DNA of 64,000 nt. Origin: Selaginella moellendorffii (taxonomy: Eukaryota > Plantae > Lycopodiophyta). The notes beneath the pieces are model-generated. The model had not been told where the DNA came from. It did not search any database and was given only the letters and a program-made list of their open reading frames with translations. Shown here one piece after another: positions 13,175-41,600 of the stretch. Where the stretch lies: positions 151,219 to 215,218 of the forward strand of contig NW_003314417.1 in assembly GCF_000143415.4 (NCBI RefSeq). Direction: 5' to 3'. Position 1 is the first letter of the stretch. Every line of letters begins with the position of its first letter. The position numbers and the translations under genes were made by a program.

Positions 13175-13233
13175 ATTTGGTATCGGAGCCTTTTCCTCAG
13201 TTCTAGCGAAGGATAGAGGCGGATTGCTGGGAG

Positions 13234-18006: not shown

Positions 18007-18039
18007 AAATATCAATTTGCAAAGTTGAGCAAGTGGCAT

Positions 18040-18410
18040 ATGTTGGGACCCGAAGGCGCGCCAAAGGTGAGCTAATTAGCATGGGTTAGCTAGGTCGACC
18101 AGGCGTAGGGAGCTACGCCCGACTCCCTGCGGGGATGTCGAAACCGTAGACGTATTCTACGGAGGTTGGGTTCGAGTCCCAACCCCCTAGTAAAGCAAGG
18201 CTGGGTTCAAGTCCCGACCCCATACTAGGGCGTGGTGAGGGGTGGAGTATAGGGACACCTATATTCCGTTGTCATGAGCTCTTGGCCGGGGAGGCTAACT
18301 TAGGCACACCGCTAAGTGGGGGGATGCCCCCGGAGACATGGTCAACAAGTCGTAGGATAAAAAAGAGACGTTCGATGTGGGCATCGAACTTCTTCTATGG
18401 GTGGTGGAGT
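18040..18410 (+). other. Structured 3' UTR (hairpin array with two T-arm/B-box-like stems) and PPT
   Basis: Stems ggcgtag-ggag-ctacgcc, ccgtaga-cgtat-tctacgg, ggttggg-ttcgagt-cccaacc, ggagtatagg-gaca-cctatattcc, gttcgatg-tggg-catcgaac. Confidence 0.7.
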
Positions 18411-19558
18411 TGTAAGGAACCAACTCGCCGAGGTGTCGTAGGCTAAGGGAACCCCGAAAGCATGACCAAAATGACAAAGAGTTCATCGGATGGGACCAAG
18501 TCAAAGATCGAGTCCAAGACCGACTCTAGGACCGAGTTCGAGATCGAGTCCGGAATCGAGTCCGAGACCGACTCGGGGACCGAGTTCGAGTCCGAGTTCG
18601 AGACCGAGTTCGAGACGGAGTCCGAGATCCGAAATCGGGTCCGAGACCGAGTCCGAAGTCGAGTCCGAGGTCGGGCCCGAGATCGGGTCCGAGATCGAGT
18701 CCGCGATCGAGTCCGAGACCGAATCCGAAGTCGGATCCGAAATCGGATCCGAGATCGAGCCAGAGACTAAGTCCAAATACTAATACGGGTCAAGGGGTGA
18801 AAGCCCAAAGCGTGCGTCCCCCAGGGGGGGGGGGCTGCAGGGGGTTCCAAAAGTATAGTAGGGATAGTGAGGTCCAGGAACCAGTTTTGAAGGGACTCTC
18901 CAGTTGGGCTTCCAAACCGACTTGAGGTTGGGACTGGGACTAAGGGGCCTTGGGTGGGAGTGAGCATGGACTTGGCTGGTGCCGGAGGGGCCATCCAAGG
19001 AAGTGCTCAAGAGCAGCTCCCACTCCCGAAAGGGAAACCGATTGCGGTGCTCCCGGCTCATGTGGAGTGGTGCCCCACTTGAGTACCATGCGGCTCATTG
19101 GTCCTCGCCCTTCCAAGGGGCTTGGGCCTTCCTTCGGGATGGAAGTGGGGGGCGAGAGGTACCCATACCGGGCCGTTAGGCCACGGTGTTTCGCCCCGGC
19201 GTCCCGAAGCAAGTGTTGCACTCAAGACTTGGGATTTAGAGGGTCCCATGATCAAGTCTTGTGGTACCAAGGGATGTTAGGAACCTGGAAGCTTGGTGTG
19301 CTTGGCTGCTTGTGCTTGCGGGGAGTGTAGCCGAACCTTAAGTCCAGTCTAACCCGGGGAGGGGGATTGGGAGTGATTTGGGAATCCATGGAAGGATGGC
19401 TAACACTCCGTTGCTCGTGCAGTGAGTAGCTGAAACCAAGTAGGAGCTGGTACCATAGGCGAGAACCTTGGCAAGGGAACTTAGCAAAAGCCAAGGCAGT
19501 GTTGGACGGATAGACGAGGTAAGCTGGCAAATTGGAAAGGAAAAATTTGTGGCTTACA
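18411..19558 (+). repeat. 3' LTR of element A
   Basis: Near-identical to 12027-13174; followed by TSD TCGAG. Confidence 0.95.
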
Positions 19559-20598
19559 TCGAGATGGAGTCTAAGATGGACCCGAGATGGAGTCTGAGAT
19601 GGACCCGAGATGGAGTCCGAGATGGAGTCTGAGATGGACTCGAGATGGAGTTTGAGATGGAGTCCAAGATGGAGTCTGAGATGGAGTCTAAGATGGAGTC
19701 TGAGATGGACCCGAGATGGAGACTGAGATGGAGTCCGAGATGGATTTGAGATGGAGTCCGAGATGAACCCAACATGGAGTCTGAGATGGACCCAAGATGG
19801 GGTTTGAGATAGAGTCCGAGAGCTTACCGTGTTTACCAAACACCCTCACTATCATACCCTTTGTGTTAGTCTCATTTCGGTCCCAAGTGCTATTGGTGGA
19901 AAGTGTTTAGATTTGCTTATTTGGCATATCTACGGAATGTAGAGATCAGCCTAAACACAATGGTGTTCACTCCGTGTCCAAATTCGCAAATTAGGGACAT
20001 TCCATATTTAGTAAGTTTTGAACTTGTCCCAAAGACTAACTCCTGTTACTAAGGGAGGCTTGGGGTGAAAGCCCAACGCGTGTGTTCCTCAAGGCAGGGG
20101 GGGGGGGGATAGTGGTTAGAATGCATGTCTGACCACTTGAGACATTAATTTGGCTCCCACTAGGCTGTGTTACTCCTTGTTCTGTGTCCAACTTGGGTCT
20201 AAGCCCAAGCTCCACACTACTCTAGTTGGTCGGGTACCCTCCTCCTCATGTTAGGCCACCGATATGCTATAATTGTACTAGACTCTGTCTGACACCATTT
20301 TGCATGTAGGTGCTGGATACAGGGAGCTTATACTTGTAGAATTGTACCAAACCCTCATTTCATAGTGCAATGGCCTTGGAGTTTGGCTCCAAATTTAGGT
20401 GCACTACATTTGGTATCAGAGGAATTGTCTCAGTGATTCCTATCCAACTTTTGTCAGATTTTCTGATTCAAGTTGTATACGCAGAGACTTTTCCAGTAGA
20501 TTTGAAGCGGCCTGTGTAGGATTACTTGGATTGCACCATTCGGTAAGAACGTTGTATGCATGTTCAGTTACTAATAGAGGTATGCATGCAACTAGCGG

Positions 20599-23500
20599 GA
20601 TGGTGAAACAAAACCGTGCTGATGATGCTGAAACCTCTAGATTGGCGAATTGAGAGGAGGAACTCCTGCTAGAGATGCTGCGGAAGAGGCTGAGGCCGAG
20701 TTAGAAGAGGAAGAGCCAGATGCTGTGGCATTGTAGCATACGGCTCAGAAAGTTGAGATCAAGAATTTGTGAAGGGAGATTTGCAAATTGAATAAGGAGA
20801 ACAAAAAGAGGAAGAAAGAAGCTAAGGCAGCTAAACCAGCAAAACCTAAGCAACCGGACTCCTCTTCAAGTTCTGAGGACAATGAAGTTCTGCAATCGCC
20901 CCCAGTTGCACGAGTTTCAAAGTTCAAGCCTCCAAAACCACCCAATTTCAGAGGCATGCAAGACTATCAGGTTTTTGAAGATTGGGTCTATGATATGGAA
21001 AACTATTTCATAGTGGCAAACGTAGATGATCGTACGAAAGTTGCATGCACGCAATCCTTTCTCACCGATCATGCCAAAACTTGGTGGCGCTAGGTGTGTG
21101 CTAAAACAGGGCAGACTAGAAGTTGGACCAAGATGCGGTTTTGTATCCATAAGGAATCTTTGCCAGATGATCTTGGTCTAAGTCCTCTTGTGGAGCTGCA
21201 ATAGTTAAAGCAGCAAGGGGACCTTATGCATTACATTAATGCATTTGCTCAGAAGCACATTATGATTGCAAATATGGGTGATGAAGATGTTCGGAATTGT
21301 TTTCTGGAGGGTTTAAGTTCACTTTCTCGCAATGAGATTTTGTAGTTTAAGCCGAAGACGTACCTGGAGTGTAAGGAGGCAGCGCAGCAAGTTGCCTTTA
21401 GTCACTCGCTCATGGAACAATAGCAGCAGCCGTATGCTGGTACCTCATATAAGAATAGGAATTCTAGGAATAAACAAGGTGATCGAAAATAGAGGGTGGA
21501 AGGAAGGTTCCACCCTAGAGGCTCACAAGCAACGGTTAACAAAGGTGGTGGTGGTTGGAGATCACCAGCAACTTTTTGTGGTCCTAGGCCCTCTGTTCCT
21601 CCTTCTGGTGGGTACAAGCAGTAGCAACCTGCAAAACCTACTCCTAGTGGAATGGGTAGTGTGGATCATTGCTTCCGTTCTGGAGAGTCGGGACATAGGT
21701 CCTCAGAATGTCCTAACAAGCATAAGACAAGGTCTCATGTTAATGTCATGAGGAAAGATAGTGGTGGTGAAGCTGAAGAGGTTGACGAGTTGGTCAATGC
21801 AGACTATGAGGAAGAGGAGGTGAGTTACTTTCGTTGCTTTCCTCAAGCTTTTCTCGTAGTCAATGCAAACACTGATCCGTTGATGTATCTGGTAGGCTTT
21901 GTCTATGGATACTAAATCTGAGTGATGATTGACACGGGAGCTATGCAACGTGATATCCAAAGACTTAGTTAAGTTGTTAGGATTGAATGCTGAGCAAATG
22001 TCACCTATGCACTTCCGGTTTATGGAAGGTGGGCAAGTAGCCAGAAAATTTGTTAATGATGTTCCAATAAAAATATCCAACTGAAAAGAAAGAGTGGACT
22101 TGGTAGTGTTGAAGATACCAGATTTTCATATGGTGTTTGGTATGGACTTCTTCAACAAATATGTAAAAGGGATTTATGGTGTTGGATAAAGTCGTATCAC
22201 ATTGAAGTCAGAAGGACATCCCGATGTGTCCTTCCAATTGCAAAAGCGCTCCTCAAAGGATTGGGATGCAAAGTTCCTGACTGCGAGAGCCGCTCAAAAA
22301 GCAGCTAAGAAGGGATGTCAAACCTTTTGGGTTCAAGTGATGGAAGTTAAAGGTGTTGGTGACTCAGTTCGAATTGGCAACGGGATTGATCCTATACCAA
22401 AGAAGATATTGGAGTTATTGGCATAGAATTAGGATATCTTCTTGAAGGATTTGTCGCCAGGGCTACCTCCTAGCCATAAGGTTGATTATCGGATTGAGGT
22501 TATTCTGGGTTCTAAACCACCTATGAAAGCTTCGTATCGATTGAACATCAAAGAGATGGCTGAACTCAATAAGCAACTCATGGAGCTTCTTGACAAAGGT
22601 CATTTCCAACCAAGCAAGTCACCTTATGGAGCGTCGATCCTTTTTGTTATGAAAAAGGATGGAACCATAAGGATGTGTATCAACTATCGGGCACTCAATA
22701 AGATCATGGTAAAAAATAGTTATCCTTTGCCTCGCATTAATGACTTGTTTGACCAACTCTTAAAGGCTAAGTATTTTATGCGGCTTGATTTGTGGTTCGG
22801 ATATCATCAGGTGGTGGTGGCAGATCAGGATGTGGAGAAGACAGCCTTTAAGACTCGATATGGATTTTATGAGTTCCTAGTCATGCCATTTGGGTTATGC
22901 AATGCTCCGGCAACATTCAACACTATGATGGATAGAATATTTGGAGATTATTTGGACGTGTTTGTTGTTCTATATATCAACGATGTTCTAGTCTTCAATG
23001 AAACGTTGGAGGATCATTTGAAACACTTAGAGCTGGTGTTTCAGAAGTTGTGTGAACACTAGTTATATGCTAAGGAAAGTAAATACGCTTTTGGACAATT
23101 ACACGTAAACTTTCTCGGACATATAGTTGGTGGTGGCATAATTGAGGTGGATCCAAAGAAGGTGGAAGTGGTGAAGTCCTGGGAAGTCTCAACTAATGTA
23201 TCAAATATTTGTTCCTTTCTTGGTTTGGCAAGATATTATCGTAAGTTTATCTGCAATTTTGCAAGAATTGCTCTTTTGTTGATTGAGTTGATGAAGAGTA
23301 GTATTTCGTTTCATTGGACACCGGGTTGTTAGCATGCTTTTGTATGGTTGAAGGAGATCTTGACTATGGTTCCTGTTCTCAAGATCCTGGATCTTTATAA
23401 ACACTTCGAAGTGGATTGTGATGCATTTGGCTACGCTATAGGTGCCATATTACAGCAAGATTGTGACAAAGTAGTTAGTGTTATGTTAAGGCGATATGGT

Positions 23501-24116
23501 TGTCCCATTGCATTCTATTCCAAGAAATTGGATGAAACTCAACAAAGATGGCCAACGCATGAGAAAGAGATGTTAACTATAGTGTCGGCCCTGGAACACT
23601 GGAGACACTACTTGGGTGGACATACCAAGGTTTATACAAATAATAACACATTGAGCTACTTTGTTATGCAGCCTAAGCTTACGCCAAAGCAGGCTCGTTG
23701 GCAAGAGAAGCTTGTTAGATATGATATTGAAATCATATATCAACCTGGTAAAGATAATATTGTTCCGGATGCATTGAGTCGTCAGACTCAATTCCGGGCA
23801 ATATCAGCAATCATTTTGGACTGGTTGGAGGACGTTCGAGCTTCGTATAGAAGTGATCCATTGGCGAAGGCAATCTTCCGCTGTGGATGTTGCACGTCAA
23901 GAGGAGATTCATCCACCGCCAGAAGTTGTGGATGGTGAACCTGAATATGAAGTTGAAGGCATTCTATCATGTTGCCGGAAACATGGTGGCCGTGCGAAGG
24001 AATATCTAGTTAAGTGGAAAGGTTACCCGACATGTGAATCAACTTGGGAACCTCTTAGTAATCTTATCCATGCTCGTGAGCTTGTCAAAAAGTATGAGAA
24101 TAGTAATAAAGCCTAG
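20599..24116 (+). pseudogene. Degenerate gag-pol of chromovirus family B, integrase core deleted
   Basis: KPPKPPNFRG..DWVYDMENYF gag; CFRSGESGHRSSEC; [10 protein letters not shown]; RNaseH; sequence jumps at ~23875 directly to the chromodomain EYEVEGILS..VKWKGYPTCESTWEP. Confidence 0.88.
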
Positions 24117-26820
24117 CTTTTGTAAACTTTGTAATACATCTTGCAAATCAATAAAGTAATATATTTCTATAAATCAAGTTTCGTTTCTCTCGTTCTTAGT
24201 ACTTGGGTCAATTTTAGCAGGCTGACTTTGGCACATTGGTGTATGGGTCAAATCCATAACCATGGGGGTAACTATTATAGACTGATCACAAGTCCCCACC
24301 TCTCTCTTAATGACTCATTTTTTAAAAGGGGCGTGTTCGTGTCATTTGATACTTGTCGGCCAATCCTTATGGACACTCTTTCCTTACTGCCACAATGGCA
24401 AGAGGTTAGTACTGCTGTGTAAGCCACAAATTTTTCCTTTCCAATTTGCCAGCTTACCTTGTTTACCTGTCTAACACTGCCTTGGCTTTTGCTAAGTTCC
24501 CTCACCAAGGTTCTTGCCTATGGTACCAGCTCCTACTTGGGCCTATTTGGTTTCAGCTACTCATTGCACAAGCAACAAAGCGTTAGCCATCCATCCACGG
24601 ATTCCCAAATCTCTCCCAATCCCCCTCCCCGGGTTAGACTGGACTTAAGGTTCGGCTACACTCCCTGCAGGCACAAGCAGCCAAGCACACCAAGCCTCCA
24701 GGTTCTTAACACCCCTTGGTACCACAAGACTTGATCATGGGACCCTCTAAATCCCAAGTCTTGGGTGCAACACTTGCTTCGGGACGCCGGGGCGAAGCAC
24801 CGTGGCCTAACAACTCGGTAAGGGTACCTCTACCCACCCACTTCCATCCCGAAGGAAAGGCCCAAGACCCTAGGAAGGGTGAGGACCAATGAGCCACATG
24901 GTACTCAAGTGGGGCACCACTCCACATGAGCCAAGAGCACCACAATCAGTTTCCCTTTCGGGAGTGGGAGCTACTCTTGAGCACTTCCTGGGATGGCCCC
25001 TCCGGCACCACCCAAGTCCCTGCTCACTCCCACCCAAGGCCCCTCGGCCCAAGTCTCAACCTCAAGTCAGTTTGGAAGCACCACTGGAGAGTTCCTTCAG
25101 GACTAGTTCCCGAACCTCACTATCCCTACTATACTTTTGGAACTCCCTGCACCCCCCCCCCCCTGGGAGACGCACGCTTTGGGCTTTCACCCCTTGACCC
25201 GTATTAGTACTCGAACTCAGTCTCTGGCTCGATCTCGGACTCGATCTCGGATCTGACTTCGGATTCGGTCTCGGACTCGATCTCGGATCCAACTTCGGAT
25301 TCGGTCTCGGACTTGATCTCGGACTCGATCTCGGACCCGACCTCGGACTCGACCTCGGACTCGGTCTCGGACCCGATTTCGGATCTCGGACTCCGTCTCG
25401 AACTTGGTCTCGAACTCGGTCTCCGAGTCGGCCTCGGACTCGATTCCGGACTCTATCTCAAACTCGGTCTTAGAGTCAGTCTTGGACTCGATCTCAGACT
25501 CGGTCCCATCCGATGAACTCTTTATCATTTTGGTCATGTTTTCGGGGATCCTTTAGCCTACAACACCTCGGGGAGTTAGTTCCTTACAACTCCACCACCC
25601 ATAGAAGAAGTTCAATACCCACATTAAATGTCTCTTTTTTATCCTACGACTTGTTGACCATGGCTCCGGGGGCATCCCCCACTTCGCGGTGTGCATAAGT
25701 TAGCCTCCCCGGCCAAGAGCCCATGACAACGGAATATAGGTGTCCCTATACTCCTCACCTCACCACGCCCTAGTATGGGGTCGGGACTTGAACCTAGTGT
25801 TGCTTTACTAGAGGGTTGGGACTCAAACCTAACCTCCGTAGAATACGTCTATGGATTCGACATCCCCACAGGGAGCCGGGCGTAGTTCCCTATGCCTGGT
25901 CGACCTAGCTAACCCATGCTAATTAGCTTACCTTCGGCGCGCCTTCGGGTCCCAACATATGCCATTGCTCAACTTCACAAATTGATATTTTAATTGAACT
26001 TTGCATAAGTACATAGAGTTCTGCCTTGCAGAAATTCCTCCACTAGATCTTGCACATTTGCTAGGTTCTCCTCCAGTTCCCATGTTGCTTCACAGTGTGG
26101 AAATCCTTTTCACTTCACATGGAACTCTCTCACCTCGCGTCCTTGTCATTTGCTCTTGTGCGCATTGAGGATGGCCTCGACTTCGTATTCCTCTTCCCCT
26201 TGGATAACCTCAGGTAAAGGTCTTACTTGGTCTTTGCGAAGCGGATCCTCAAAGTACGACTTGAGTAAGTTCACATGGAACACTGGGTGCATCTTCCCCA
26301 TCTCTCAAGGATGTCAGAGACGGTAAGCCACTTTACCGATTCGTGCCTCAATCTCGTAAGGCCCCGCGAACCTGCTTAAAGCTTTATTTCGTTAAAGTGG
26401 GAATTGTCATTATCCCATTTGTAAAATAAGGTTTCCAAACCTTTATATAGTATATAAATATAACAAAATTCAACTGCATTGAGGCACATGCCATTTTATT
26501 TTAAACAAGGAAATGTCTACTCAATCACTTCTCCTCCCCCTGCCACTGCTTCACCTCTCTCTTCTCCTTGTCATCGTCATCCAATTTCTTTCCATCCTTT
26601 TAATATTGGCTCAGTTGCTCCGAGTCTAGGTGGAGCCCAAGTCCCCATTCAATCTTTACTTTCCCCTTATTAATAAAACAACTTCGTAGACTTCCAATAA
26701 CATGCTGTAACACTTCTAGTATAATGCAAATCCTCTCAAAGAATTGTCTTTTAATATTAATACAATGGCATGGAACCCCATGCCATAATAAGTTACATTT
26801 TTAAATAAATACATGCCATC

Positions 26821-27675
26821 TCAGACTGTTATTTTTTGCCTCCAACGCCTATACAATAATCTTGGAATTTCATCACTCTCCACACTATCAGGATTTAAAC
26901 CCAATAGTAATGCCATCTCTTCTCTAATACGTCCACGCTCATGTTCAGTGGTCGAAGAACCCATCCGGTTGAGCAGATTATGGAGATGTGGATAGTGCTT
27001 GGCTAGACAATATACATGCCATAAATGATGACTGGTGTCTGTCCGATCAAATGGCTTCTGATATACCGTTCCATCTACCATTTGGTTGATTTCTGCAGCC
27101 ACCTCTTGGACTGGCCGGTTCTCTATCACCATCGCTTCAAGCCGTTTTGCAAGGTCCCCCAGAACATATGGTTTCTTCTCCCTAGTTTCCATACTGCAAG
27201 AGATGGGGTGCACTGCATATGTGTGCGTGTTCGCTGCAGTTTTAATCGGCGAGTCATCGATGATGAGGATTTCACTTGACCTAGCAGTCCGGTTCATCAC
27301 TACAGCCTCTGGCTTGACGAAGATGGGCTTGCTACCCCTCACATGGACCATAGTCAAGCAATCCTCCTGCGTTAGGAGAAAGTCAAATGATAATATTACT
27401 CGCGTCTGATCGTCTGTAGCAACGTTAATGCATTGTGGCGCATCATGGATGTCCAAACTCCCAATTGCAAATTGAACCCGGCCCTCTGTTTTAAGTGTCA
27501 CATGGTCATTATTAGATCACGCAGTTTCTCCCGTGTGATTAATGTGAATCTGTCTCTTTTGACCAACTTGCGACTGTAGGCTTTGGAGGGTGCAGTGACA
27601 TTCGAGGACGAGCCACGCTCATGGGAGAAAAGGACACCGTTCAGATCAAAAACGATACAGTACTTTCGCCGTGAC
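26821..27675 (-). CDS. FCP1/NIF-family HAD phosphatase-like domain of the cargo gene
   Basis: CIVFDLNGVL, LGVWTSMMRHNA (frame after the stop), FLLTQEDC, KPIFVK, ILIIDDSPIK, AVHP. Confidence 0.75.
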
Positions 27676-29689
27676 TCTGAAATGAAATGCGTCAGCATAA
27701 AAAATGGTACAAGTCAATTTTACCATCTACAATATTAGCGAATGGTGCTCCCGATGGTCGTTGAGAGGGTTTTGGTCGAGGAAACGTGAAGGGCGGAAAT
27801 ACTCTCCTCTGCAATGTGGGGTCAATCGCATCCGATGGCGTGTGGGCACATGCCATTTCAGCTGTAGACTCTGGTACAACTGGCTCAACAGTGGCATGGG
27901 GTGGTTCCGATGGCGTGTGATCACACGCCATTTCAGCTGGTGCCTCCGTTGGCAAAGTGGACATGACCGAATAGGCAGCAGGGGCGGTGTAGGGAGGTTC
28001 CAACGGCACGTAGTCAGACGATTGGGCACATGTTGAGTCCGTTGGAAATGAGGATACGACCGGCTCGGCGGCTGGGGCGGCCTCATGCGGGTCCAATGGC
28101 GCCTGGTCACCGTCAGTTGGATACGTGGACAAGATTGACTCAGTGGTATGGGCAGCATCAAGTGGAGCGTGGTCAGCTTGCTTGGCGTTGATATGGATAG
28201 TAGCCTCCACCAGCTCTGATGACTCTTGCAGGCAAGTAGAGTCCACTGGCGGATCCATATGCATGTCCAAATATCTCCCTTCGATTGAGATGGTATCCTC
28301 CCTACTGGCTACTAAAAACAAACTCATTAGCACATTGAATTGACTATACTATATTTACCATCAACTGCTATTGGGCGCACTGCTGATTCTGAAGGATTGA
28401 ACATACGTTTCGACCCTTGCTTGGCACTATCCTTCCTCGACACTAAAGGCTAGAGTTTGTATCTTAATTCAACTGAATAATCTCTACTTACCATTTCTTC
28501 TGCGACCTACATGAACAATGTTAGAAATGGTAAAAGGTTAGGAATGGATGTACTATTATTTACCTGATGGTTTGTCTTGTATGACCTTCCTCCGCTGCTC
28601 TTTGGCCACCTCAGGCTGGCCATCGTCATCATCATCGTCATCGTTGTTATTGTGATCGTCACCATTGTGAGGACCATCCAAGTCCTCTTCGTCCTCCTCT
28701 TCTTCATCCTCCTCTTCTTCGTCCTCCTCTTCTTCGTCCACCTCTTCTTTGTCCTCCTCTTCGTCCTTCTGCTCTTCCTGCTCATTATCTTTCTCTGGCT
28801 CCTCATCCCCCTCTTGCATTTCTTCCATAGGCTGCTCAGGCTGGATGGCTTGTTTTTCCAGGACCATCTTGGGAAAATCATCTGGCCGAGTCTCCATCTC
28901 AAAATACAAGACATCCATAGCCTGTTTCAGTGCTTGACCTAGGACCGTATCCTCACCCGACTGTCTTAACATGGTTTCTGCACGTTCTTGCACCCTTCGA
29001 AGACGACGAGATGAGAAAAACGTGGCCCTGACTTGAAAAGCATCCCTCATCCATTGTACCTCTCCATTGAGATTGGGGAAGGGGAGTCCACCATAGGAAT
29101 CTGAGTCAGGAGGTGGTGACTGGCTCCTTTCACTCAGCCCTTGATCTGCAATGAATGGCATGAGCACACACGCCATAACCGCGAGGCATTACCTATCATC
29201 TTTTCATTGCCCTTCTTCCTTTTCGAATCAAACGCCTCTGATCCTAACGACTGTCCAACGTGCTTTCGCTTTTTATGACCACTGTCAGTTTGAGCTTGAC
29301 TGGTGCTTGCCTGTTTTGCCTTTGAAGAAGTGTCTCCTGCAAGGAATGGCATGAGACCACACGCCATTGCAAATATAATTTGTACTTCCTTTTTTCCTAT
29401 TGCTTGTCTGTTTGTCCTTCTTCGACGCGCCACCAGTGCGCTTTTCAGTCCTCGTATCTGAATATTCACAACGATCTATAATCAAAATGGCGTGAGGCCT
29501 CACGTGACCTTACCTTGTGCAGGTTGTGAGCTCGGCCTAACATCAGTAGCTGTTAACGCCGTTTCAGCATCTGGGGGTGGCCACGCTCCTGCATACAGAG
29601 CTTGTGAGATAACATTTAAACTTAAAGTGCGTACTCACCAGGTTCGCAGAGAAGATACTGTTTTTCTTTGGCAACTGTAATTATATGCT

Positions 29690-30290
29690 CCATTGAAGTC
29701 ACCTCTTCAATGGAGTTTGTCACCGCAACACACGGGACACCCTTGAGTAGTGCGGCTCGAAAGAATAGTCCGCCGCAGTTGTACTCGACAACGCATTTGC
29801 ACTTGGTGTCACCCGCTATTGCGTTGAAGACCCAGCTGAGCATTTCCCATGCTGCACCTGGAGCTTTCTTTGGATTCGAAAGCTCCATAGCCATCTTCAG
29901 TTCCTCAGGCACGGGTAAATTGACCTCCCTCATATCAACTCGATCGGCCTTGTCGAACGAAGCTGGGAAGTCACTCCAGTCCCACTCTGCTGCAGGACCA
30001 ATAACAAGGGCGAGTGTGAAGATGCGGACATTCGTCGGTATCTTCTTCTTAGCCATTATCCCATGGATCTCCCGCATCTCCTTGCCTTTCAACCGAGCCT
30101 TCACCTCGTTCAAGGCCTTCCAGAACTTGTGATAGGATTCGAGTCGTAGATCATATAGTGGACTGAAGATTCCACCTCCGCAAGTCCCACCATTAAGTCA
30201 ATGATGGAGTTGACTTCGTCTGCATGAGTGATCTCTTCGTTTGTGAAGTCCATCACACAAAAGATGTTCTTGACCTGCTCATCTCCGCGG
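29690..30290 (-). CDS. Degenerate beta-class (N6/N4) DNA methyltransferase-like domain of the cargo gene
   Basis: KKAPGAAWEMLSWVFNAIAGD..CVVEYNCGG..RAALLKGVPCVAV resembles the KP..L..LI...GD.VLDPF.G.G...AA...GR pattern; the expected DPPY motif is degenerate (CVMDFT). Confidence 0.45.
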
Positions 30291-31119
30291 GAAACAATGC
30301 TCCTCCACCTTTGATCCTCATCCGAATTCACGTATACCCGGTAAGGTTCTCGATAGGCCTCTGCTGCAGGGTCGAGCTGTTTCTGAAGCCGGCGGTCGAC
30401 ATCCCTCTTAATGAAATTTGGATACTGATCCAACTTCTCAGCTTTACTTTTCGTGGCATCCCGCAGCAGATCGATGAACTTGGGGGCCCCGTTCACGTAC
30501 TCGTCGATGTCTTCATTTGACAAGTCCAGCTCTTCCATCATCTCTTGCGTGGTGTCGATGCTCACCCTCTCCACGACCACTTGCTCGAAGATCCAATCCT
30601 TCAATAGCGCACGAGCTCTCAGAGTCGTGCACAAGTCCTCGTATGTCACAATATGGCCGGGAGTCATTTTGGTCTTGTTGAAGACTACCTCACCACGTAG
30701 AAGAGCATTAGCCACTGTCAGAAGGTTGTCGTCGTCTAGAGACCGCGAGAAACGCAAGGCATTGAGCTTCAAATCATTGGGCTTCCAGCCGTCCTCCACA
30801 CCCATTGAGTTTAGCAACTCCCCGTCATGGTACCTCCTCAGCACATCTACCCATTTGTCAAAAACAACTTTTGTCGCGAGTAGAATGTTATGGATGCTGA
30901 GTGTGTCATTGACCCCCAGTGTTTTCGAGAGAAGACTCGAGAATTCCTGCAATGGAAATGGCGTGAGGCCACATGCTATGCCACATGCAACAAGGCTTAC
31001 CTGCTAGGCGCTAGTTGCTAGTGCACGTCCTTGTCCTGGTTTTTGTGGCTTCTTCAGTTGAACCCAGATCTTCCGTGTTCGTGCCAATGTCTCGTGCAGA
31101 CCCGATTTGTAGCACCTTT

Positions 31120-31515
31120 CTTGCTTGACATTCTGCGCGTGGGAGATGGATATGATAGATCGGAGGGGCGAGTTGCCTTTTATCAAGCGGACAACTCTTG
31201 TCTTGAAGACTTTCTTCACCTCCTCGCCCACCATAATATCCAGAACTATCTCTTGCATCGCCAAGCTAGAATGCTGCCCGGAGACGGCATAGAACCGAAT
31301 GTTCTGATCGTCCAACACCTTCCTATTGATCAAGTTTGGAAACCTCGTCTCGCCCTTAATTGTTTGGTAGTAGGGGATCACGTCTGCGATGTCGGGTGTT
31401 ACTGGACTTGCCAGCATCTTCTGCTTCAGTTTCTCCACCCACTCATCAGATACTAGCCTGTGGTTGTATTTGCTTTGGATGTCAATACGGCTCACGTCGA
31501 TTGTATATACTTTGT
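31120..31515 (-). CDS. ParB/Sulfiredoxin-like domain of the cargo gene
   Basis: VYTIDVSRIDIQ...NHRLVSDEWVEKLKQKML...FYAVSGQHSSLAMQE resembles the ParB N-terminal fold (GxxR box here GQHS). Confidence 0.6.
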
Positions 31516-32629
31516 TGGAATAGTAACAAGTACTATTATCTGCGATGATTTTTGCTGCCTCTTCTTGCTCTTTCTGCTCTTTGCGGCTCTTCTTTTTGGT
31601 GGGTGTAGTGTTCGAACCCGAGGCAATGGCATCACCGAGTAGCTTCTTTTTTGGAGCAGCAGAGTCAGACGTCGGCTTGAGCTTGACCACCCTTTTCTGC
31701 TTCGGGGTAGTTTCCAGATCGACCCCCTTCCCCTTCGCTTCGCGAACTGGAGGCACTCTCAACGGCTCAATGTTGGAATATAGTTTTTGAACATCGCCGT
31801 AGGTAAGGTCCGTGGATTCCATGTGATCTTCATAGACCCGCAGCGTCTTTGAAATTGTGGGCCTCCTGGACAACCTCTCCCTAGCTCCCTCTAGGAATTC
31901 CTCATAGCCGCTGCCCCCCTCCGGGAAGCCGCTAGGATGTGTAAGGTGGATCTTGAGGGCGGACGCTGTCTCTACCACAAGTGCCAGTCCATATTCTTGC
32001 ATGGAACTGCATGGAGTGTCTGTCACTTGGATGAGGATCCCCATGCATTCTTTTCTCCCACCATCTGTGTTGTACAGCATCAGATCCTCGCCTTCCATCC
32101 CGAAAGTCCAACTGGTGAGCTCCTCCCCCTTCTCTGCATCCACATTGACAGTGGCTGGAAGAAGAACGCAATTCCTCGCCTGTTCAGAAATGCACAACAA
32201 TTAGAGCTGACAGATGAAAAGCTAGCAGCTGGAAATAACGTGAGGCCACACGACATTCACCACTGCATTAGATGTCTTGAGGCTGCATCCTAAGATGGCG
32301 TGAGGCTATACGCCATCTGTAACCAGACTGCACTCGAGAGCCCAATCGGTGCATGCCAATGTTGCTACTGAATGGCATGTGGCCTCATGCCATTTTCTAC
32401 TTGGCCTAAAAGACTTACCATTTGAAGCCGAATGGAGGCCGTGACAATCAAGGCCGGACTCGCTGGCGAATGTGCACTGTGTGTGCAGCGGATCATAGCA
32501 GCAAGGCTACTCTGCCACTTACAGTTGGAGAGTGGCGTTGAAATCTCCCGGGACGCCAAGTGGGCTGCGTGTGGGTGGCGGAGTGGGCGGCGGAGTTGGC
32601 GGCGAAGTTACAAACTGGGTGTGTCTTGA

Positions 32630-32820
32630 AGTGGACGCCGATGCACACGAGCGCGATGCGAGCGCGAGTGTGATGCAAGCGCGAGTGGACGCCGATGCAC
32701 ACGAGAAACCTGTAGAGAAGGGAGCGTGATCGCGAGTGGGAGCGCGATGCGAGCAGGAGCGCGAGTGTGATGCGAGCGCGAGCGCTTGTGTGATGCGAGC
32801 GCGAGCGCGAGTACGAAGCA
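32630..32820. repeat. CpG-rich GCGAGC/GTGTGAT low-complexity repeat, putative promoter/5' UTR of the cargo gene
   Basis: gcgagcgcgagtgtgatgcgagcgcgagc repeats directly upstream of the minus-strand exons. Confidence 0.6.
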
Positions 32821-34029
32821 AAATGCAAAACCTAACCTCACATGCGCGAAATGTCACAACGGTTGGTAATCCCGCCACGTCATCATTCCTCGGACTTGGG
32901 CGCCACCATTAATTTCTGGATTGCCGCGCGCATGCAAGCACGCAGAATCCAAAAGAAATCCGCAACGCCATCATTCCTCGGACTGCATGCACGCGAAATC
33001 CAAAAGAAAGATCATGATTGGGATATCATTTAATACCCTCGCTATATTTATACCATGCATGATTGGATATTCCAAAGCATCTTGTATTTCCAAAAATGGC
33101 AGATGTTCAGCTAAATAAAGAAATTCTATCTGTTTCTATTTTTCTCTCAAATCAATATTATAGCGTGTGGGCTCATGCAATTTTGAACCAAAGAAACCCA
33201 AAAAACGTTGGACCCAAAATATTTTGAAAAAACCCAAAAAACCCTAAACATTTTAAACCCAAAAATCCAGGCGTCTTGTGGCGTTATTCCTTGAATGGCG
33301 TGTGGGCGCATGCCATTTTCAGGGCCAAATGCTGAATGGAGAAAAATTCCCTTTCAGTGCAAATGCTGCAAGAGGCAGATGCCGAGCACAAAGGACTGTA
33401 ACTACCTCACATGACACAGATAAACTTTTCTCTATTTGGCAAAGATAAACTTTATAGCGTGTGGGCTCATGCAATTTTGAACCCAAAAAATGCACCAAAA
33501 AATTCTCGGCGTCATCTGGCGTTATCTCTTGAATGGCGTGGGGCTGCATGCCATTTTCAGGGGCACATAGGAGTATATTCTTAGGATATTCTGACATGCG
33601 CGAGATTGTTTTGAGTTTTCTGGAGATCCAACCGTTAGATCGCAACTAGATTTTACAGAATGGTATACAATGTCTTTCTTGATGACCCTGCAAAGAAGCA
33701 TCTCGATCGGACACCACATGAGACCACACGAGCCTTACAATGTTTCAGGGGCATTTGCCATAGATCCGACTGTTATTTTGCTCCAAGATTTTACAGTTTG
33801 GTGTGCATTGACCTTTCCATCGACACTGCAAAGGGACATCACAATCAGATTTGGGATCACAAGAAACTAACTTCACTAACTCTGGTTTCACCAAGATGTA
33901 CGTAAGGAGTTATGAAATGAAAGGACCCTCTCTATTGAAATATGTTTATGGTCCTAGGGGCATTGTGACATATCAAAGGATTTTGCATCAAGTTCTGTAT
34001 TTGCATGTTTATCAAGCTACTGAATTGCT

Positions 34030-34060
34030 AAACCCTAAACCCTAAACCCTAAACCCTAAA
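34030..34060 (+). repeat. Plant telomere-type (AAACCCT)4 telo-box array
   Basis: aaaccctaaaccctaaaccctaaaccctaaa. Confidence 0.85.
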
Positions 34061-35181
34061 CATGTGGCAAATGCTGCGTGAAGAAAGATGCCCCTTCTGG
34101 GCAAATGCTGTAAGACGCAGATGCCGAGCAGATGTATCTCAGGCTAGCGAAGGGGACAAATGAAAGCTAGCTATAAACATGATGGGATGCAAATAGATTA
34201 TTAGGCTGGTCCTACGAAAATCAAAAACCATAATTGAAAACATTGAAAATGCAAAAAGAAAGGTTTATAATATTTTTGAATTTTAAGCAACCAAAGGAAT
34301 GTAAGTAGGGCATGTGTTTGTAAGTTTAAAAATGCCTCAACCACTTAAATTCAGAAGTAAATAAAGCTGTTTCTATTTTTGGTACAGGTAAACTTTATAG
34401 CATGTGGGCTCATGCAATTTTGAACCCAAAAATGCACCAAAAAATGCTCGACTAGCATTATTCTTTGAATGGCGTGTGGCCTTATATTGCCATAAATGGA
34501 CGTACACACAGAGCATAATTATTCCTTTACACGGCGAATAATCTTGGCGCGGATCGCTGACATGGTATGGCAAAGTTCGAATCACTGACATGGCACAGCT
34601 GGATCGAGGCAAGGACATGATGTGACAAAGTTCAACCTCCGACAGCAAAGTCTAGAAGCTACTCAGTTTGAAATTTGTCAAAGGAGTCATAAGATCTGGT
34701 TTGTCAGAGGATTTGATGTGACATTCAAGCGTGTGTTATTTTTGAATTCTCGAACTCATTCCTAGGTCTATCATTTTTGTGCGCCGTGTTCTTGGTTCCG
34801 CTGAGCGCAGTGAGCGCTGCTTGTGTAAGCGGCGTTGTGGGCTGTGGTTTATTCGTCTACGAGCGGTTGCGGCATTGCGAGCGCCATTGCGGGCGGCAGT
34901 TTATGTGAGTGGCAGTTTGTGCGAGCGGCGCTACGAGCAGTTGCGGTGTTGTGAGCGGCGCTACGAGCAGTTGCGGTGTTGCGAGCGGCACTGTCTTTGG
35001 TGTGGCTACCGCTTCCTCTTGATATTCGGCACTTGTGCTTCTTGGTATGTTCACCATGGAATGGCTTAGGACCACATTTAGAAATGGCATGAGGCCACAT
35101 GCCATCTTGGGCCCTTGCAATTTCATGGCTAGCGTATTGTCATGTATGTTTTTACTTGCCTGCAGCTGTGTGTATATCAAG

Positions 35182-35373
35182 ATGGCATGAGGCCTCATTG
35201 CATCTTTGGCCCCTGCTAGCCTATTGCCATATTCCTTTTGCCTTGCTGCAACTGTATATATTTTTGTATGGGTGACTAGTCACACACACAAAAATATATA
35301 CAGTTGCAGCAAGGCAAAAGGAATATAGCAACAGGCTAGCAAGGGCCAAAGATAGCGTGAGGCCTCATGCCAT
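35182..35373. repeat. Long inverted repeat (~95-bp arms) upstream of the transposase start
   Basis: Centred on gtgactagtcac (35272-35283); arms ...gccttgctgcaactgtatatatttttgt and acaaaaatatatacagttgcagcaaggc... Confidence 0.9.
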
Positions 35374-35561
35374 TAGTGGTACCACTAATGGTATGAGGGC
35401 TCATGCCAATTTTGTGAATGCAAAATTTCACGTGGGTGTCAATAGCATGTTTGAATAATGGCATGTGGCCTCATGCTATTGAGGTTGTTTGGTATGTTAT
35501 GATTTAGGCCATTCTCCAATCATTTTTTGTATGGTCTTAACTTCTTTTCTGCACTTTCAGA

Positions 35562-37552
35562 ATGGCCTTCAGGGTTGGGGAAAAGGTTTACATTTTGAAT
35601 GGTGGGAAGAGAGTTGCAAAAGGGACCCTTGTGTCTATGGATCGGAACTTTGTTATACACTGTCAAAGGCTTGGGGAAGGCAATGTTGCTGTATCAGTAG
35701 AGACTGTCTTCGATGGGAATGTGGTCGCTATTGAACGAGGAGAGATGGTCGTCGGGGTAAATGTTGTTGTTGCCTTGAAAAATCTTCAGAAGAAAGCAGA
35801 TGTTGGGGACAGCGCAAGTGCGACGCATGTTCCCTCCGTGGATCTTAAGAACCGTGCTACATGGATTCAGGCGAAGGTGTTTCTAAACAACCCCGAGGGG
35901 GAGGTGGTAGCTGAGGGCTTAGCCACAGTTGTCGATCCAAGAGATGCGGTTGCTAATCAAGAATTGGGCTGGGATGATATTGGAGTTGCGATTTTAGAGG
36001 TTGTTGACACAGAAGAAAACAGTCTGACTATTGGAAGCATTGTGCGGTGGAAATTGAGGCACTTAGTGTTTGAGAATGTGAAGGATTCACAATCAAACAC
36101 CACTACAACTGATGACAGAACATCTCTTCATGGGAAAAGAAAGTACACCTTCCTAAAGTGCAGCCAAAGGGATCTGAGCAACGAACCGAAAAGGCAAAAA
36201 ATGGCGATGGAGGTTCGAATGGTCTCGACAGTTGCTTGTTGCAAGAGGAGGTGCTGTCAACATGCTGATTGGGATGCTATTGAAGAGGAGAGAGCAAGAT
36301 ACAAGACATTGTCCTGGAAGGCAGCTCGCAATTTTGTGTATGAGGCATTACGGTCATCTGTTGATGCTTCAGAACATCAGGTGGGGGGCATGGTCTTCCA
36401 GAGGGGTTTGGTTTGCATGAAGGCATGGAGAATCATTTATGAAGTCCCTCGAACCACATTCTACAGAATCAAAACTGAGTTCGAGGAACAAAGGGTTCAA
36501 CAGGCAGTCCAATGTCCTCACCCTCCCACAACTCTACGATGAATTCCAAAATTGCATCAAAGGCACTGTTGAAGCTGCACTTCTGACAGAGGTTCCAGAC
36601 TTTAAGGGGTTTGTAAGAGGCTATATCAGGGACGGATCCGAAACGCTGATTGGCCACTCCAAGCCTCTTCAGTTTCATTTCAGCATGCGTGACGATGCTC
36701 CAGTGATGAGGTACAAGATGAGAGAATGGGGCACAGTGTGGCTGCCAGTGGACGGCATTGAACTCTTCAAGAGAGATCCCATAACTGGGGAACCTATGAT
36801 TCCTCAGGGTTCCCCACGACTGATGCACCCGGATGGACTCAAAGACCAGGAAACTATAGTGGCCGGGATTAGACAGCATATTGCCTTCTGGAAGAGGGGG
36901 TTGGTGTTTGGTGGAGAATCCTATTTTCAGAGGTGCAAGCCTTTGCTCGAATACTGGGAGAAGATTATATCTGCTATCCAAAATGGGCCGGTTGTATATG
37001 AAGAATTGGAAGAGTCCTTTTGGCCAGAACCCAGAGCACCAGATAGTAGTGGAACAATGTCCTCTGGAAATGCAGTGACAGATAACGATGTTGAGGATCA
37101 CTATTGTGGGCCGAGGAACAAGAAGCCGGATTCAGCATTCAATCCAGTACAGGTCTGCAAAGGAATGGTCGTGCTTGTCAGACCCAGTAATAAAAAACAA
37201 ATGATATGGGTGGGGCGCTGCATCATTGATGCAGAGGAGGACGCGGAAACTAACTCCTTCAATGTAACTGTGGAGTGGTTCAAGCCAAGTTCCGGATATA
37301 CAAAGGATTGCCTAGAAAAGAGATGGGTGCTGAATCCAAGGGATCCCAGCATGAGCATATCGGTGGATAATGTTGTGCATGGTTGGATGCGGAAGCAGAG
37401 TGCCACCATCACCTTGCCAGACCATGCAAGAGATGCAGCAAGAGCATTCATAACCCGGGTTCAAGGTGAGATTCATTAATATTCCTTTACTAAGTTTCTA
37501 ATGTATTTTATTTCAAGGTGAACAATCCGAATCTGAATCAGAGGAGGCGTGA
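35562..37552 (+). pseudogene. Sola/DUF7869-like transposase with the catalytic core deleted (junction ~36500); N-terminal Tnp1/DUF8039-like repeats, C-terminal Tudor/BAH-like region
   Basis: CCKRRCCQH..VCMKAWRIIYEVPRTTFYR is joined out of frame to TLPQL..LLTEVPDFKGF..LIGHSKPLQFHF..PVMRYK..W.P..GI; the expected DDD/GHT region is absent; last intron 37466-37517, stop 37550-37552. Confidence 0.62.
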
Positions 37553-38678
37553 TGGCATGTGGCCTGAGATGATGTGACATATGCATTTACCAATCACACG
37601 TGCATAAATCTAATAATATGGCGTGTGGCCCATATTAATGGCACATAAACCCATATTGTGGGCTTATGTGCTTTATGTACCATCATTCCCTTGCAGCGTG
37701 TGTGTTGATTTCCTTTTATAACACAACGAACTCCATATTTTAGGGTGAAGAGCGTTCTCATGGCAAGCACAAAATCTGTAAGTGAGGCAGAAAAGGAGAC
37801 AGAGAAGGAGATAGGTGAAGATGTAGAATATATAAGTCTTCCAAACTCCCCGTACTATACTCCAGGTGATCATTTTTCTGAACAAACGGCAACATTAACA
37901 ACTATCGAGAACGCCCCAGTAACGTCAGAGACAACAATCCAAAGCAAAACAATTGACCCGGAGAAGGATGATAGTACCGCTGAGAGTACCAAAAAGGAGG
38001 TGTCCACTAGCGCTTAGGCTTATAATGGCGTGTGCCCTCATGCCATTTACTTGATCACCAAATACCTTTTTCCCTTTGCACTAGTATATCTTAATACCGG
38101 TCTGAGAAATAGAATGGCATGTGCCCTCAGGCCTTTTACTAAATCACCTTTGAAAGAAATGCAAGCCTCTATGTCGTAAAAAAAAGGTACTAGAGAAATT
38201 CCTTAATAATATGAATGTTATTTAGTTTCATGAAAATACACTAAGGGTCAAATGAGTTAAATGACTTCTCCAGACTAGCAATACCTCTTGCTACACCTTC
38301 ACAATTAGATTCGTTAGAAAAAGATAACATTGAATAATATCTAAATGTTCTCACCATTAAGTGATATGTCTGGCTAATAGGAATGACGTTCATCTTGGAA
38401 AGCTCACCACACGCTCAATGAACAAACAAATAGTGTGTGCGCGCATGCCATCGCTCTTCTTTAGCTTCAGATTCGGCTTGTTCACCTTGACAATGAGATT
38501 TATTATACAACCAGATAGACTCAGTCTGGACATAAAGTCACCGCACTAGTCACCATGCCCCAGATATGTCTAGCCCCTGGACAAAAAACATATAATTTCA
38601 CGTCATTTTCAAATACTTGAAAATTTGTACCTAGTCCCATTTTACTGAATAAATCCCACTTTAACGAAATAGAGCATC

Positions 38679-41600
38679 TTAAGGAACTCAAGATCAATTC
38701 ATTTACAGGAATACATGCATTTTTACCTTTGGGTCAACTTCCGGCTGATCCCACTTGGTAGCCTGAGGTTCTTGGTGTTCAGCCACACCTTCTCCCCAGC
38801 TTGGAACTCTATTTCCCGACACTTCTGGTTTGTGTACTTGGTTTGCCTTTGTTGAGCCCGTTCCAAGGAATCCCTCACCAGATTCCAAATGTTGAGTCTT
38901 TCCACCGTGAATGCCTCCACTGCGGGTAACTCTCCATGGTACTCGGCCACGCCGAGTTCCATAGGACCTTCAATAGCTCGCCCATTGATGACTTCCCATG
39001 GACTCACACTGATGCTCGAATGTGGTGAGTTGTTATAACACATTTCCGCAAGTCCTAAATGACTTACCCAATCAGTCTGGTCTCCTGAGACATAGCATCG
39101 CAAATAATCCTCCAGCTGCCTATTCACCCTTTCCGTTTGTCTGTCTGTCAAGCAGTGTTAGTGCCATCAAACTTGACTTAATACCTATTACCTGTTTGTG
39201 GGTGGTAGGCTGTGCTGAATTTCAACTTGGTGCGATACTATTCCAGGAGTGTTCTCCAGAACCTACTGGTGAAAATCTTATCTCGATCTGAGATTATCTC
39301 TTTTGGCCTTCTCTGCACTCGAACCACTTGTTCAAAGAATAGCTTCACCACACCTTCTGCATCCACTTCCATTATGGTGGGTATGAAATGTGCCATCTTC
39401 GAAAATCGATCCACCACCACGAATATCGCATCAAATCCCTCGTTTGGGGGGAATCCCGTGATGAAGTCCATCGTAAGACATTTCTACGGACGATCTGGAA
39501 TTGGGATGCTTTGTAACAAGCCCCCATTAGCCTTAGTCACAGCTTTGACCTGCTGACATGTTGGGCATGTCTTTACCTAGTCTTGGACATCCTTAGCCAT
39601 ATCTAGCCAGTGGTACTTCCTCTTGAGTAAGCCCATTGTCTTGGGTACTCCGCCGTGTCCCGCAAGAGGTCCATCGTGACACTCTTCTAAGGCTACCTTC
39701 CGTAGTTCCCCTTCTAGAATAGACACCCTTGTTTGCTTGTAATATATGAGTCCGTTGTGTTCCACATAGCCCGTTTTCTCTTCCATTGGTAGCTCACCTC
39801 TCTGGTGAGCTTCCCGTGCCTCTAGATTCCTCAGCAACACTTCTTGTGCTAAACCATCATTCTCATATGCAGTCCACACATCGTCCCAAAAGGTTGTTGT
39901 TGTGCTGGATATCGCCAACTTCAAGCTCACTTTTCGACTTAGTGCATCTGCCACGATGTTGCTCTTCCCAGGCTTGTACCGAATCTCGCAATCAAACTCG
40001 GCCAAAGCATTGGCCCACTGACCTTGTTTCCCTCTTGGGTCGGGCTGTGACAAGAAGTGTTTCGTTGCCACATTGTCCATGTAAACCTTGAAGTGTCTCC
40101 CAAGGTAGTGTCGCCACTCCTTAAGCGCCCTTACCACCGCAAACAATTCCTTCTCGTGGGCAGGCCACTTCCGTTGAGCCTTGTCCAACTTCTTCGAGAA
40201 GAACGCTACTAGATGGTTGTCTTGCTTCAAAACTGCACCCAACGCAAAGTCTGAAGCATCCGTTTCTACCTCAAAGTCTTTACCAAAGTCTGGTAACGTC
40301 AATACGGGAGCCTTCCTCAACTTCCCCTTGAGGTGGACGAATGCCGCCTCGCATTCCGCTGTCTATACCATCTTCCCTTTTCCTGTTTGGTCCGTTAAGG
40401 GCAGGGCTACTCTCGAATAGTGTCTGATAAGCTTTTGATAGTAGTTGCATAGCCCTAAGAATGCCCTTAACTTGTGTACATTCAATGGTCACTCCCAATC
40501 TTGGATCGCTTGGACCTTCTCAGGGTCCACCTTGAGCCCGTCCTTGCCCACCACATGCTCGAGAAACTTTACCTTTTGTTGAGCAAAGTCACATTTGCTC
40601 TCTTTAGCATACAGCTGGTGTTCCCTTAGTTTCTCAAACACCTTCGTCAAGTGTTTGGCATGCTCCTATAGCGTTTCGCTATAGATCAGGATGTCGTTAA
40701 TATAGACGACCACGAAGTGATCCAGATAGGGTACAAAGATATGGTTCATCAACACCGAAAACATTGCCGGCGCATTGCATAGCCCGAAGGGCATCACCAG
40801 AAACTCAAAGCTCCCATACCTCGTTCGACAGGTTCTCTTCTCAACATCTTCCTCTGCTACCCTGATCTGGTAGTATCCTGACCTTAAGTCAATCGTTGAG
40901 AAGTATTTTGCCTTTCCCAACCTATCGAACAGGTCCTCAATCCTTGGCAAAGGGTACTTGTTCTTCTTTGTATACTTGTTGAGTAACCGGTAGTTTATGC
41001 ACATGCGCATAGATCCATCTTTCTTTTTCACAAGTAGCACCAGTGCCTCATATGGCGACTTGCTCAGCCTAACATACCCTTTGTCCACCAACTCCTCTAG
41101 TTGGCGCTTGAGCTCCTCGAGTTCCTTTTCATTCAAACGATAGGGGGGACGAACCACCACCTCAGCACCCTCGACTAACTCAATCTTATGTTCTATCAGT
41201 TGTGCGGGGGGCAACCCTGCCAGTAGCTCCTCTGGCATAGTATCCTAAAATTGGTCCAACACCCGCTAGATCACCAAAGGTACTTCTTCCGTTCCTGTCT
41301 TTTTATCACTCCTCACCGAGAGTAAGCACAAAAATGCTGCTTTGGTCCCTTTAGTGAGTTGTCCTCTCGTGCACACCAGGTTTAAGCATGAATCTTTGGC
41401 CTTGCATTGCCCCACCTTTAGATCCTAGGCCTCCACGAACCAATTGAACCAATCCATCCCGAAGATCACGTCAAATCCCGCCATGTCCAACACAGTGAAA
41501 TCCATGTCTACTTTCCATGTCCCTACTTCGACTCTCGCTTGTCGAAATACCTCATCGGTGCTTTGGCTACCTTGAACAAACTCTATAGTCCTTGGTTCGC

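Follow-up and report, generated by a model that had tools for sequence, protein, structure and literature searches.

A long palindrome dispersed in the non-coding DNA of a two-gene transposon of Selaginella moellendorffii: a possible tag for an element-encoded protein

A 64,000-nucleotide stretch of the Selaginella moellendorffii genome (contig NW_003314417.1, positions 151,219 to 215,218; hereafter the window) contains a DNA transposon with two genes, a transposase remnant and a divergent second gene, the cargo gene. A first-pass annotation of the sequence had noticed a 24-bp palindrome that recurs in introns and intergenic DNA of this element. What is such a palindrome for, and which protein would read it? 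We tentatively favour the reading that it is a family-specific tag for a dimeric protein encoded by the element itself, likely the cargo protein with its predicted ParB-type fold, which would act as an anti-silencer in the manner of VANC.

The palindrome and its confinement to the element

With up to three mismatches allowed, the first-pass consensus matched the window 15 times, compared to 0.00 times in 100 shuffles. Employing an iterated weight matrix, we identified 24 full sites (18.8 to 38.9 bits), all within 26472-38452; Markov shuffles gave 0.05 hits per 64 kb at 12 bits or more (n = 20 shuffles). The remaining 51.7 kb of the window contains no full site, and the best score there is at most 7.4 bits; the matrix was trained on the same 24 sites, so that this absence outside the element is its only free test. 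The existence of the palindrome within the element is thus borne out. All coordinates named at first pass check out, but the range given then (26764..38136) is too narrow, with the sites at 26472 and 38429 falling outside it. Three strong lone half-sites (34468, 37551 and 37617) are additional to the full sites.

The half-site consensus is AATGGCRTGWGG, with columns 2, 3, 5, 6, 8, 9 and 11 being 92-100% conserved and columns 1, 4, 7, 10 and 12 variable. The arms had been described as conserved and the centre as varying. Independent variation of the arms does fit a protein that reads two half-sites, but the centre does not behave as a free spacer, with G occupying columns 11/14 in 44 of 48 half-sites. 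For each of the 12 column pairs, the arms paired as often as expected if they varied independently (12 versus an expected 11.9 at column 7, and 7 versus 9.0 at column 10). This lack of covariation argues against a selected RNA hairpin and fits half-sites that are read separately.

Comparison of the motif with its flanks, as proposed at first pass, gave an information content of 1.29 bits for the motif and 0.12 bits for the flanks. Flanks were similar in 7 of 276 site pairs, every one a local duplication. We also looked for extended flanking homology and target-site duplications, the expected marks of independent insertions of MITEs (miniature inverted-repeat transposable elements). The flanks are unconserved, and direct repeats of 3-8 bp around the copies are not enriched, save in 3 of 24 sites at 5 bp (background 4%). 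Neither of the refuting observations named at first pass was thus made. Together with the lack of arm covariation, these results indicate that the palindrome is no MITE and no RNA hairpin under selection.

Placement of the copies and introns of the cargo gene

Twenty-two of the 24 sites are non-coding. Coding sequence makes up 55% of the element yet holds only two sites (p = 1.7e-6), and of the nine sites within the cargo gene seven are entirely intronic, a placement open to 8% of positions (p = 8.7e-7); some sites are local duplicates, and these p-values therefore overstate independence. The concentration in non-coding slots reported at first pass is upheld by these figures, and it recurs in relatives with a different palindrome. 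The first-pass reading, a dimeric protein's site with putative selection for motif number, is supported in part. The three copies assigned to the 5' intronic region all fall in intron 1, the two coding copies do lie in a low-complexity linker, and the estimate of about eleven copies between the genes becomes 10 full sites and one half-site. Relative to the ends of the element, 17 of the 24 sites are more than 2.7 kb from either end and five are within 700 bp of an end. Some copies arose through local tandem or inverted duplication (Table 1).

The cargo gene is broken by two stops and two frameshifts. Ten GT-AG introns could be placed in it, based on reading frame and homology rather than RNA, and nine of these are 47-57 nt long. 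With introns 3-10 removed, 765 stop-free codons remain; retaining any one of the eight ends the frame at 191-716 codons. Intron 2 coincides with an exact 18-residue gap relative to P0012, an annotated homologue of the cargo from Riccia, and several homologous gene calls end there. Because P0012 is spliced at the same place, intron 2 predates the palindrome in it.

According to the first-pass annotation, at least four short cargo introns each hold one copy, mostly just before the 3' splice site. Introns 2, 4, 5 and 6 do hold one (30957, 29486, 29345 and 29154, respectively), but the other five of the nine short introns hold none, and the copy at 29486 sits 4 nt from the 5' splice site if intron 4 is 56 nt long, being near the 3' end only with the 38-nt alternative. 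The branch-point consensus is YTNAY. Introns 2, 5 and 6 have the motif's CTCAY at -18, -16 and -16, and the motif-free introns 3, 7, 9 and 10 have YTNAY at -17, -15, -16 and -16, respectively; intron 8 has none by that pattern. Introns 5 and 6 also fold into hairpins of -14 to -16 kcal/mol. Judged from the sequence, the 3' placement in introns of about 50 nt likely reflects packing, with CTCAY of the motif doubling as the branch point, and this explains the placement better than a role in splicing does.

The transposon and its relatives

The element is inserted in a retrotransposon with long terminal repeats (LTRs), and an empty site in a paralogous copy fixes its CTTA duplication and its 24-bp terminal repeats (Table 1). 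A TTAA target, as in Sola3 or piggyBac-like elements, was considered and dropped, since CTTA brings the terminal repeats into register. The open reading frame (ORF) of the paralogous retrotransposon encodes gag, protease, reverse transcriptase, RNase H and integrase domains. Nested Ty3/gypsy-type copies occupy 7300-25500 and 61400-62100, with 12-bp tandem repeats in their terminal regions; the identity of 12027-12326 to 18411-18710 suggests a recent insertion.

The transposase remnant has a deletion near 36500 that removed ~380 central residues, including the conserved Asp motifs. The remnant matches three DUF7869 proteins at 33-34%; its match to the DUF7869 profile (E = 4e-5) is below the cut-off, and intact homologues match at E = 6e-44. 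At the N-terminus (35562-36050; P0001, P0003) there are apparently two copies of a small domain, the first weakly Transposase_23-like (E = 0.02-0.03). DUF7869 we take to be the Sola transposase. The element fits a Sola-type DNA transposon, an assignment made through this link and on a copy with the catalytic region deleted.

Criteria of the Sola superfamily are a 4-bp target duplication, terminal inverted repeats of 11-1124 bp and a DDD-type transposase (PMC10741241), and Sola has been reported from a moss (PMC10741241, PMC9033089, PMC3845634). The element resembles Sola in its 4-bp target duplication (CTTA; AAAT in a relative, locus L007), short terminal repeats and similar size. The target of the Sola1 subgroup is AWWT (PMC3845634); L007 has AAAT, but the element has CTTA (n = 1). 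It also differs in its second gene and internal palindromes, which are unmentioned in the accessible parts of the Sola accounts (PMC10741241, PMC9033089, PMC3845634); the accessible part of PMC7466625 does not mention Sola.

A transposase scan of metagenome contigs gave 116 confirmed loci, and the best 80 collapsed to 46, comprising 41 of a second group and the five closest. On the 80 loci, the window's matrix produced five weak matches. A second palindrome, ACYTRGTGGCCACYARGT, is present in 38 of the 41 second-group loci (297 sites versus 9 in matched shuffles, with a matrix trained on those loci) and absent from the five closest. A third palindrome occurs in L001, L002 and L005 (2, 4 and 1 copies, respectively); in L003 and L004, which have little flank, none was found. 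The three palindromes follow three transposase lineages (quick tree with midpoint rooting, in which the window sits on a long branch). What motifs one and two have in common is limited to the central eight bases, with GTGGCCAC at the centre (p = 0.0065 for the centre four columns); their arms differ (p = 0.16 over nine columns). The third motif shows no relation to them.

Homologous cargo was found as decayed pieces in 4 of the 41 loci, ParB-like in L034, L045 and L050 and NIF-like in L045, L050 and L068. As in this element, it is divergent from the transposase in L034 and L068; in L045 and L050 it is possibly part of a neighbouring copy. We interpreted additional tblastx matches to L045 2268-3178 as a different repeat and excluded them from the cargo. 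The cargo of L050 (7300-9800) and L068 (400-2200) terminates in two or more tandem FCP1/NIF-like domains, of which this element has one. The sites of relatives lie at the ends, between genes and in introns of homologous cargo, and tandem ladders of 46-49 bp occur. Of 30 sites within the cargo spans, 5 reach into blocks that are conserved between families, versus about 21 expected, and the others cluster in apparent introns; this comparison covers two or three independent introns, with sites masked beforehand. In the intron that follows the GQH motif, L034 has two sites whereas L045 and L050 have none, which indicates gain or loss of sites in introns that already existed. None of 135 metagenome candidates and none of 43 viral ones was confirmed in locus scans based on the cargo.

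Table 1. Coordinates of the transposon, its genes and introns, and the palindrome copies in the window.
Feature	Position	Strand	Remarks
Whole DNA transposon	26379..38677		12,299 bp; inserted in Ty3/gypsy-type LTR retrotransposon; empty site in paralogous copy near 17617-17621
Left target-site duplication	26375..26378	+	CTTA
Right target-site duplication	38678..38681	+	CTTA
Left terminal inverted repeat	26379..26402	+	24 bp; without palindrome motif; 22/24 bases match right end
Right terminal inverted repeat	38654..38677	-	24 bp
Cargo gene	26821..32421	-	11 exons modelled; start uncertain
Predicted ParB/Sulfiredoxin-fold domain	31007..31600	-	conserved GQH motif
Segment after ParB fold	30191..30946	-	where ParB has helix-turn-helix
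FCP1/NIF-like (HAD) phosphatase domain	26821..27676	-	broken
Intron 1	32180..32418	-	239 nt; palindromes 32234, 32294, 32371; GT-AG ends; intron and start codon less sure
Intron 2	30947..31000	-	54 nt; palindrome 30957-30980; CTCAC at -18
Intron 4	29458..29513	-	56 nt, or 38 nt ending at 29476; palindrome 29486-29509; open frame
Intron 5	29337..29385	-	49 nt; palindrome 29345-29368; CTCAT at -16; open frame
Intron 6	29146..29192	-	47 nt; palindrome 29154-29177; CTCAT at -16; open frame
Five motif-free short introns	27677..29638 (span)	-	47-57 nt; 29589-29638, 28507-28563, 28443-28491, 28312-28358, 27677-27723; open frame
Left-end copies	26472..26787 (span)		26472 (degenerate, 93 nt from end), 26764
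Coding copies	27834..27932		27834, 27909, 75 bp apart (75-bp local duplication); Pro/Ala/Ser-rich linker
Intergenic copies	33159..33555 (span)		33159, 33294, 33453, 33532; duplicated two-site unit
Intergenic copy and half-site	34396..34491		34396, half-site 34468; third copy of the two-site unit of 33159..33555
Copies upstream of transposase	35083..35480 (span)		35083, 35181, 35351, 35387, 35457
Transposase remnant	35562..37479	+	DUF7869 family
Right-end copies	37551..38452 (span)		half-sites 37551, 37617; full sites 38024, 38113, 38429

Just 5' of the transposase there is a 192-bp inverted duplication (91%; 35176-35378), a long hairpin with the sites 35181 and 35351 on its arms and a possible source of small RNA; for this repeat, Rfam gave only sub-threshold microRNA-type matches, and there was one further match to a small nucleolar RNA. 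In the right non-coding end, 37499-37559 and 38444-38505 show an inverted 62-bp similarity (79%) beside the sites 37551 and 38429. An acidic ORF of 102 codons (37709-38017) has no family match, and a short run of plant telomere-type repeats lies between the two genes.

Contigs of X1, one of three RNA runs, are unspliced, run through the predicted introns and differ by 1-2.5% from the window. They look like DNA of other copies, and their divergence indicates that other copies exist. A>G or T>C changes account for 28 of 52 differences; two of the 52 lie within sites and restore the consensus base. By its appearance this copy is decayed and likely methylated, and belongs to a family that has better sites. 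The GCGAGC/GCGCGA array upstream of the cargo (32640-32810) shows a 17-base insertion and a 52-base skip in the X1 contigs and thus varies between copies. Just upstream of the modelled cargo start, the 40 bases at 32486-32525 attracted 102-234 partly matching RNA reads per run. The loose ends of these reads resemble, as we take it, large-subunit ribosomal RNA, which Rfam did not list there; the stretch is possibly a captured ribosomal RNA fragment.

Candidate readers of the palindrome

The cargo contains a predicted ParB/Sulfiredoxin (Srx)-fold domain with 12 homologues (13 matches minus one spurious; P0008, a spurious repeat match, was excluded from the cargo alignments). The domain model, built from 9 sequences, has a predicted local distance difference test score (pLDDT) of 76.5. 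Its top structural matches in PDB are Noc, ParB, PadC, Srx and KorB, and it also matches phage ParB-like proteins; Foldseek gave E = 8.5e-4 for Noc, and VIA gave Z 7.7 for KorB with a root-mean-square deviation of 2.7 over 94 residues. Pfam gave no ParB match. The segment after the ParB fold is conserved, aligning with P0012 and L045 at 21-22%. Further along, 29639..30190 (- strand) presumably resembles, by eye, the end of an amino-methyltransferase fold, which PDB, Pfam and NCBIfam did not support; its single-sequence model has a pLDDT of 35.8. For the last domain, Pfam NIF is the sole match (E = 0.062), and the homologous pieces in L050 and L068 match NIF at E = 2e-6 to 6e-5. No full-length cargo homologue was found among the longer proteins searched. 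Residues 1-24 of P0012 look like the N-terminal tail of histone H3 (best E = 0.033 to H3 peptides), possibly a histone mimic fused to a ParB-fold cargo or else a chimeric gene model; no such look-alike is present in this element, and none is clear in 15 related loci.

Several lines of evidence point to the cargo as a reader of the palindrome. The sites are confined to the element and mostly non-coding, and their arms vary independently. Their distance from the ends and the motif-free terminal repeat are unlike end-binding sites. The cargo models as a ParB/Srx fold, and ParB-type proteins bind palindromes as dimers (PMC10770331). Three transposase lineages have three palindromes, and where homologous cargo was found, palindromes cluster in its introns. 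A dimer of the ParB-fold cargo would bind the palindrome as two half-sites and load at many sites; it may then spread from there over the element, in the way of ParB-type clamps, and would keep cognate copies open and transcribed against host silencing, with the FCP1-like domain as the effector. Sites would multiply through local duplication and persist where they are free of cost, namely between genes, near the ends, in introns and in the low-complexity linker; in introns of ~50 nt they would fit by supplying the branch-point CTCAY. The fold is predicted by modelling, and binding, dimerisation, sliding and anti-silencing are what we infer by analogy.

The closest parallel in layout is VANDAL21 with VANC21. 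VANC21 sites differ from family to family and are found in introns, between genes and in terminal regions (PMC5735166), and binding and demethylation by VANC have been demonstrated (PMC5735166, PMC10398659). Both are DNA transposons with an accessory gene and many family-specific motif copies in non-coding DNA, accessory-gene introns included, and in both the motif has spread through local duplication (PMC5735166, PMC10398659). However, VANDAL has a Mutator-like transposase and a 9-bp motif in tandem arrays of one orientation, whereas this element has a DUF7869/Sola-type transposase, mostly dispersed palindromes of 18-24 bp and a cargo with a predicted ParB fold and an FCP1/NIF-like domain.

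VirB, a relative of ParB, loads on a palindrome, slides and counters H-NS silencing (PMC10770331). With ParB/parS, Noc, KorB/OB and VirB/virS the cargo shares a predicted ParB/Srx domain followed by a helical segment, on DNA bearing multiple long palindromes (PMC10770331, PMC11790492). It differs in being a eukaryotic, intron-bearing gene of ~1,600 codons without an evident arginine patch; CTP binding, a helix-turn-helix, a dimer and sliding are conjectural for it, and no ParA-type family was found among the 10 ORFs of the element that were scanned. The layout is VANC/VANDAL-like, yet the element is not a member; the fold is ParB-type, yet the system is not ParABS. TnpA of Spm/CACTA is likewise an element-encoded reader of clustered family-specific motifs (bioRxiv 10.64898/2026.08.24.746577), but its sites are 10 bp and terminal and TnpA is transposase-derived, whereas here most sites are internal and a protein of predicted ParB fold is the candidate reader. 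A more specific proposal, that the transposon has recruited a bacterial-type ParB clamp, which would load at parS-like palindromes, slide over the element and shield it against silencing, while protein and palindrome diverge together in each family, we consider doubtful.

A number of results weigh against the cargo as reader. The ParB/Srx fold is also that of enzymes that do not bind DNA; SerK (Z 8.3) and sulfiredoxin (Z 8.2) are level with KorB. The cargo motif GQH[STL]xxA is without the arginine of the ParB patch, and the segment 30191..30946 gave no informative structure or profile match for a helix-turn-helix. No RNA reads covered the cargo exons in three runs of one study, ~12% of each run having been read and compared with 26370-33990. 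The cargo was undetected in 37 of the 41 second-group loci; L007, with both ends and 20 sites, is one in which it was undetected. The spacing at the right end in relatives suits a transposase: among 24 loci whose end was recognised, 16 have their last site 88-91 nt away from it.

The main alternative is that the palindromes are binding sites of the transposase, serving end synapsis and perhaps self-activation, with the cargo a passenger. Besides the end spacing and L007, it is favoured by the ladders of sites on both sides of the transposase in relatives, which stop at the element end, and by the motif tracking the transposase tree; transposases can activate cognate copies themselves (bioRxiv 10.64898/2026.08.24.746577). 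Under this alternative, the apparently duplicated small domain at the N-terminus is a candidate DNA-binding part. However, few sites of this copy are near an end and seven lie in cargo introns, the terminal repeat is without the motif, and the fixed spacing may reflect shared descent; either model would leave sites in copies without cargo, since it has a trans-acting reader. We regard the transposase as a possible reader, and a less probable one than the cargo.

A host transcription or chromatin factor whose sites the element has accumulated is unlikely. In its favour, 36 diverged transposases, possibly of a single host, have all retained the second motif, the first two motifs have a common centre, and we take parts of the motif to resemble TCP, RY and YY1 sites. 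On the other hand, the window has no full site outside the element, lineages have different arms and a third motif that bears no relation to the others, and two-fold sites of 18-24 bp exceed those host motifs in length. Still less credible is an RNA hairpin or branch-point element that controls cargo splicing: the CTCAY positions, similar to those of YTNAY in the motif-free introns, and the two intron hairpins are consistent with it, but the arms do not covary, 17 of 24 copies lie outside introns, five short introns do without a copy, and sites of relatives are mid-intron in long introns. Relics of a tiny mobile element (a MITE or an intron-generating element) or neutral local duplications, to which the duplicated copies might point, are largely refuted by the unconserved flanks, the lack of excess direct repeats, the greater age of intron 2 and the differing occupancy of the intron after the GQH motif.

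A literature search, without most subscription papers, found no account of a ParB-fold transposon cargo with dispersed palindromes. The accessible part of PMC4738411 mentions fusions of ParB-HTH to algal and chytrid methylases only, and that of a Starship preprint names DUF3723 as conserved cargo and does not mention ParB.

For transposon biology, the element would show that an intron of 47 nt has room for a 24-bp site when the site also serves as branch point. Should the transposase turn out to be the reader, this Sola-type lineage would gain its first candidate binding sites and a two-gene anatomy. Transposons with sequence-specific anti-silencing are known from a few flowering-plant families. 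A ParB-fold reader with long family-specific palindromes would offer a testable load-and-slide route from scattered sites to the whole element, for which three natural protein-site pairs may be available for specificity swaps.

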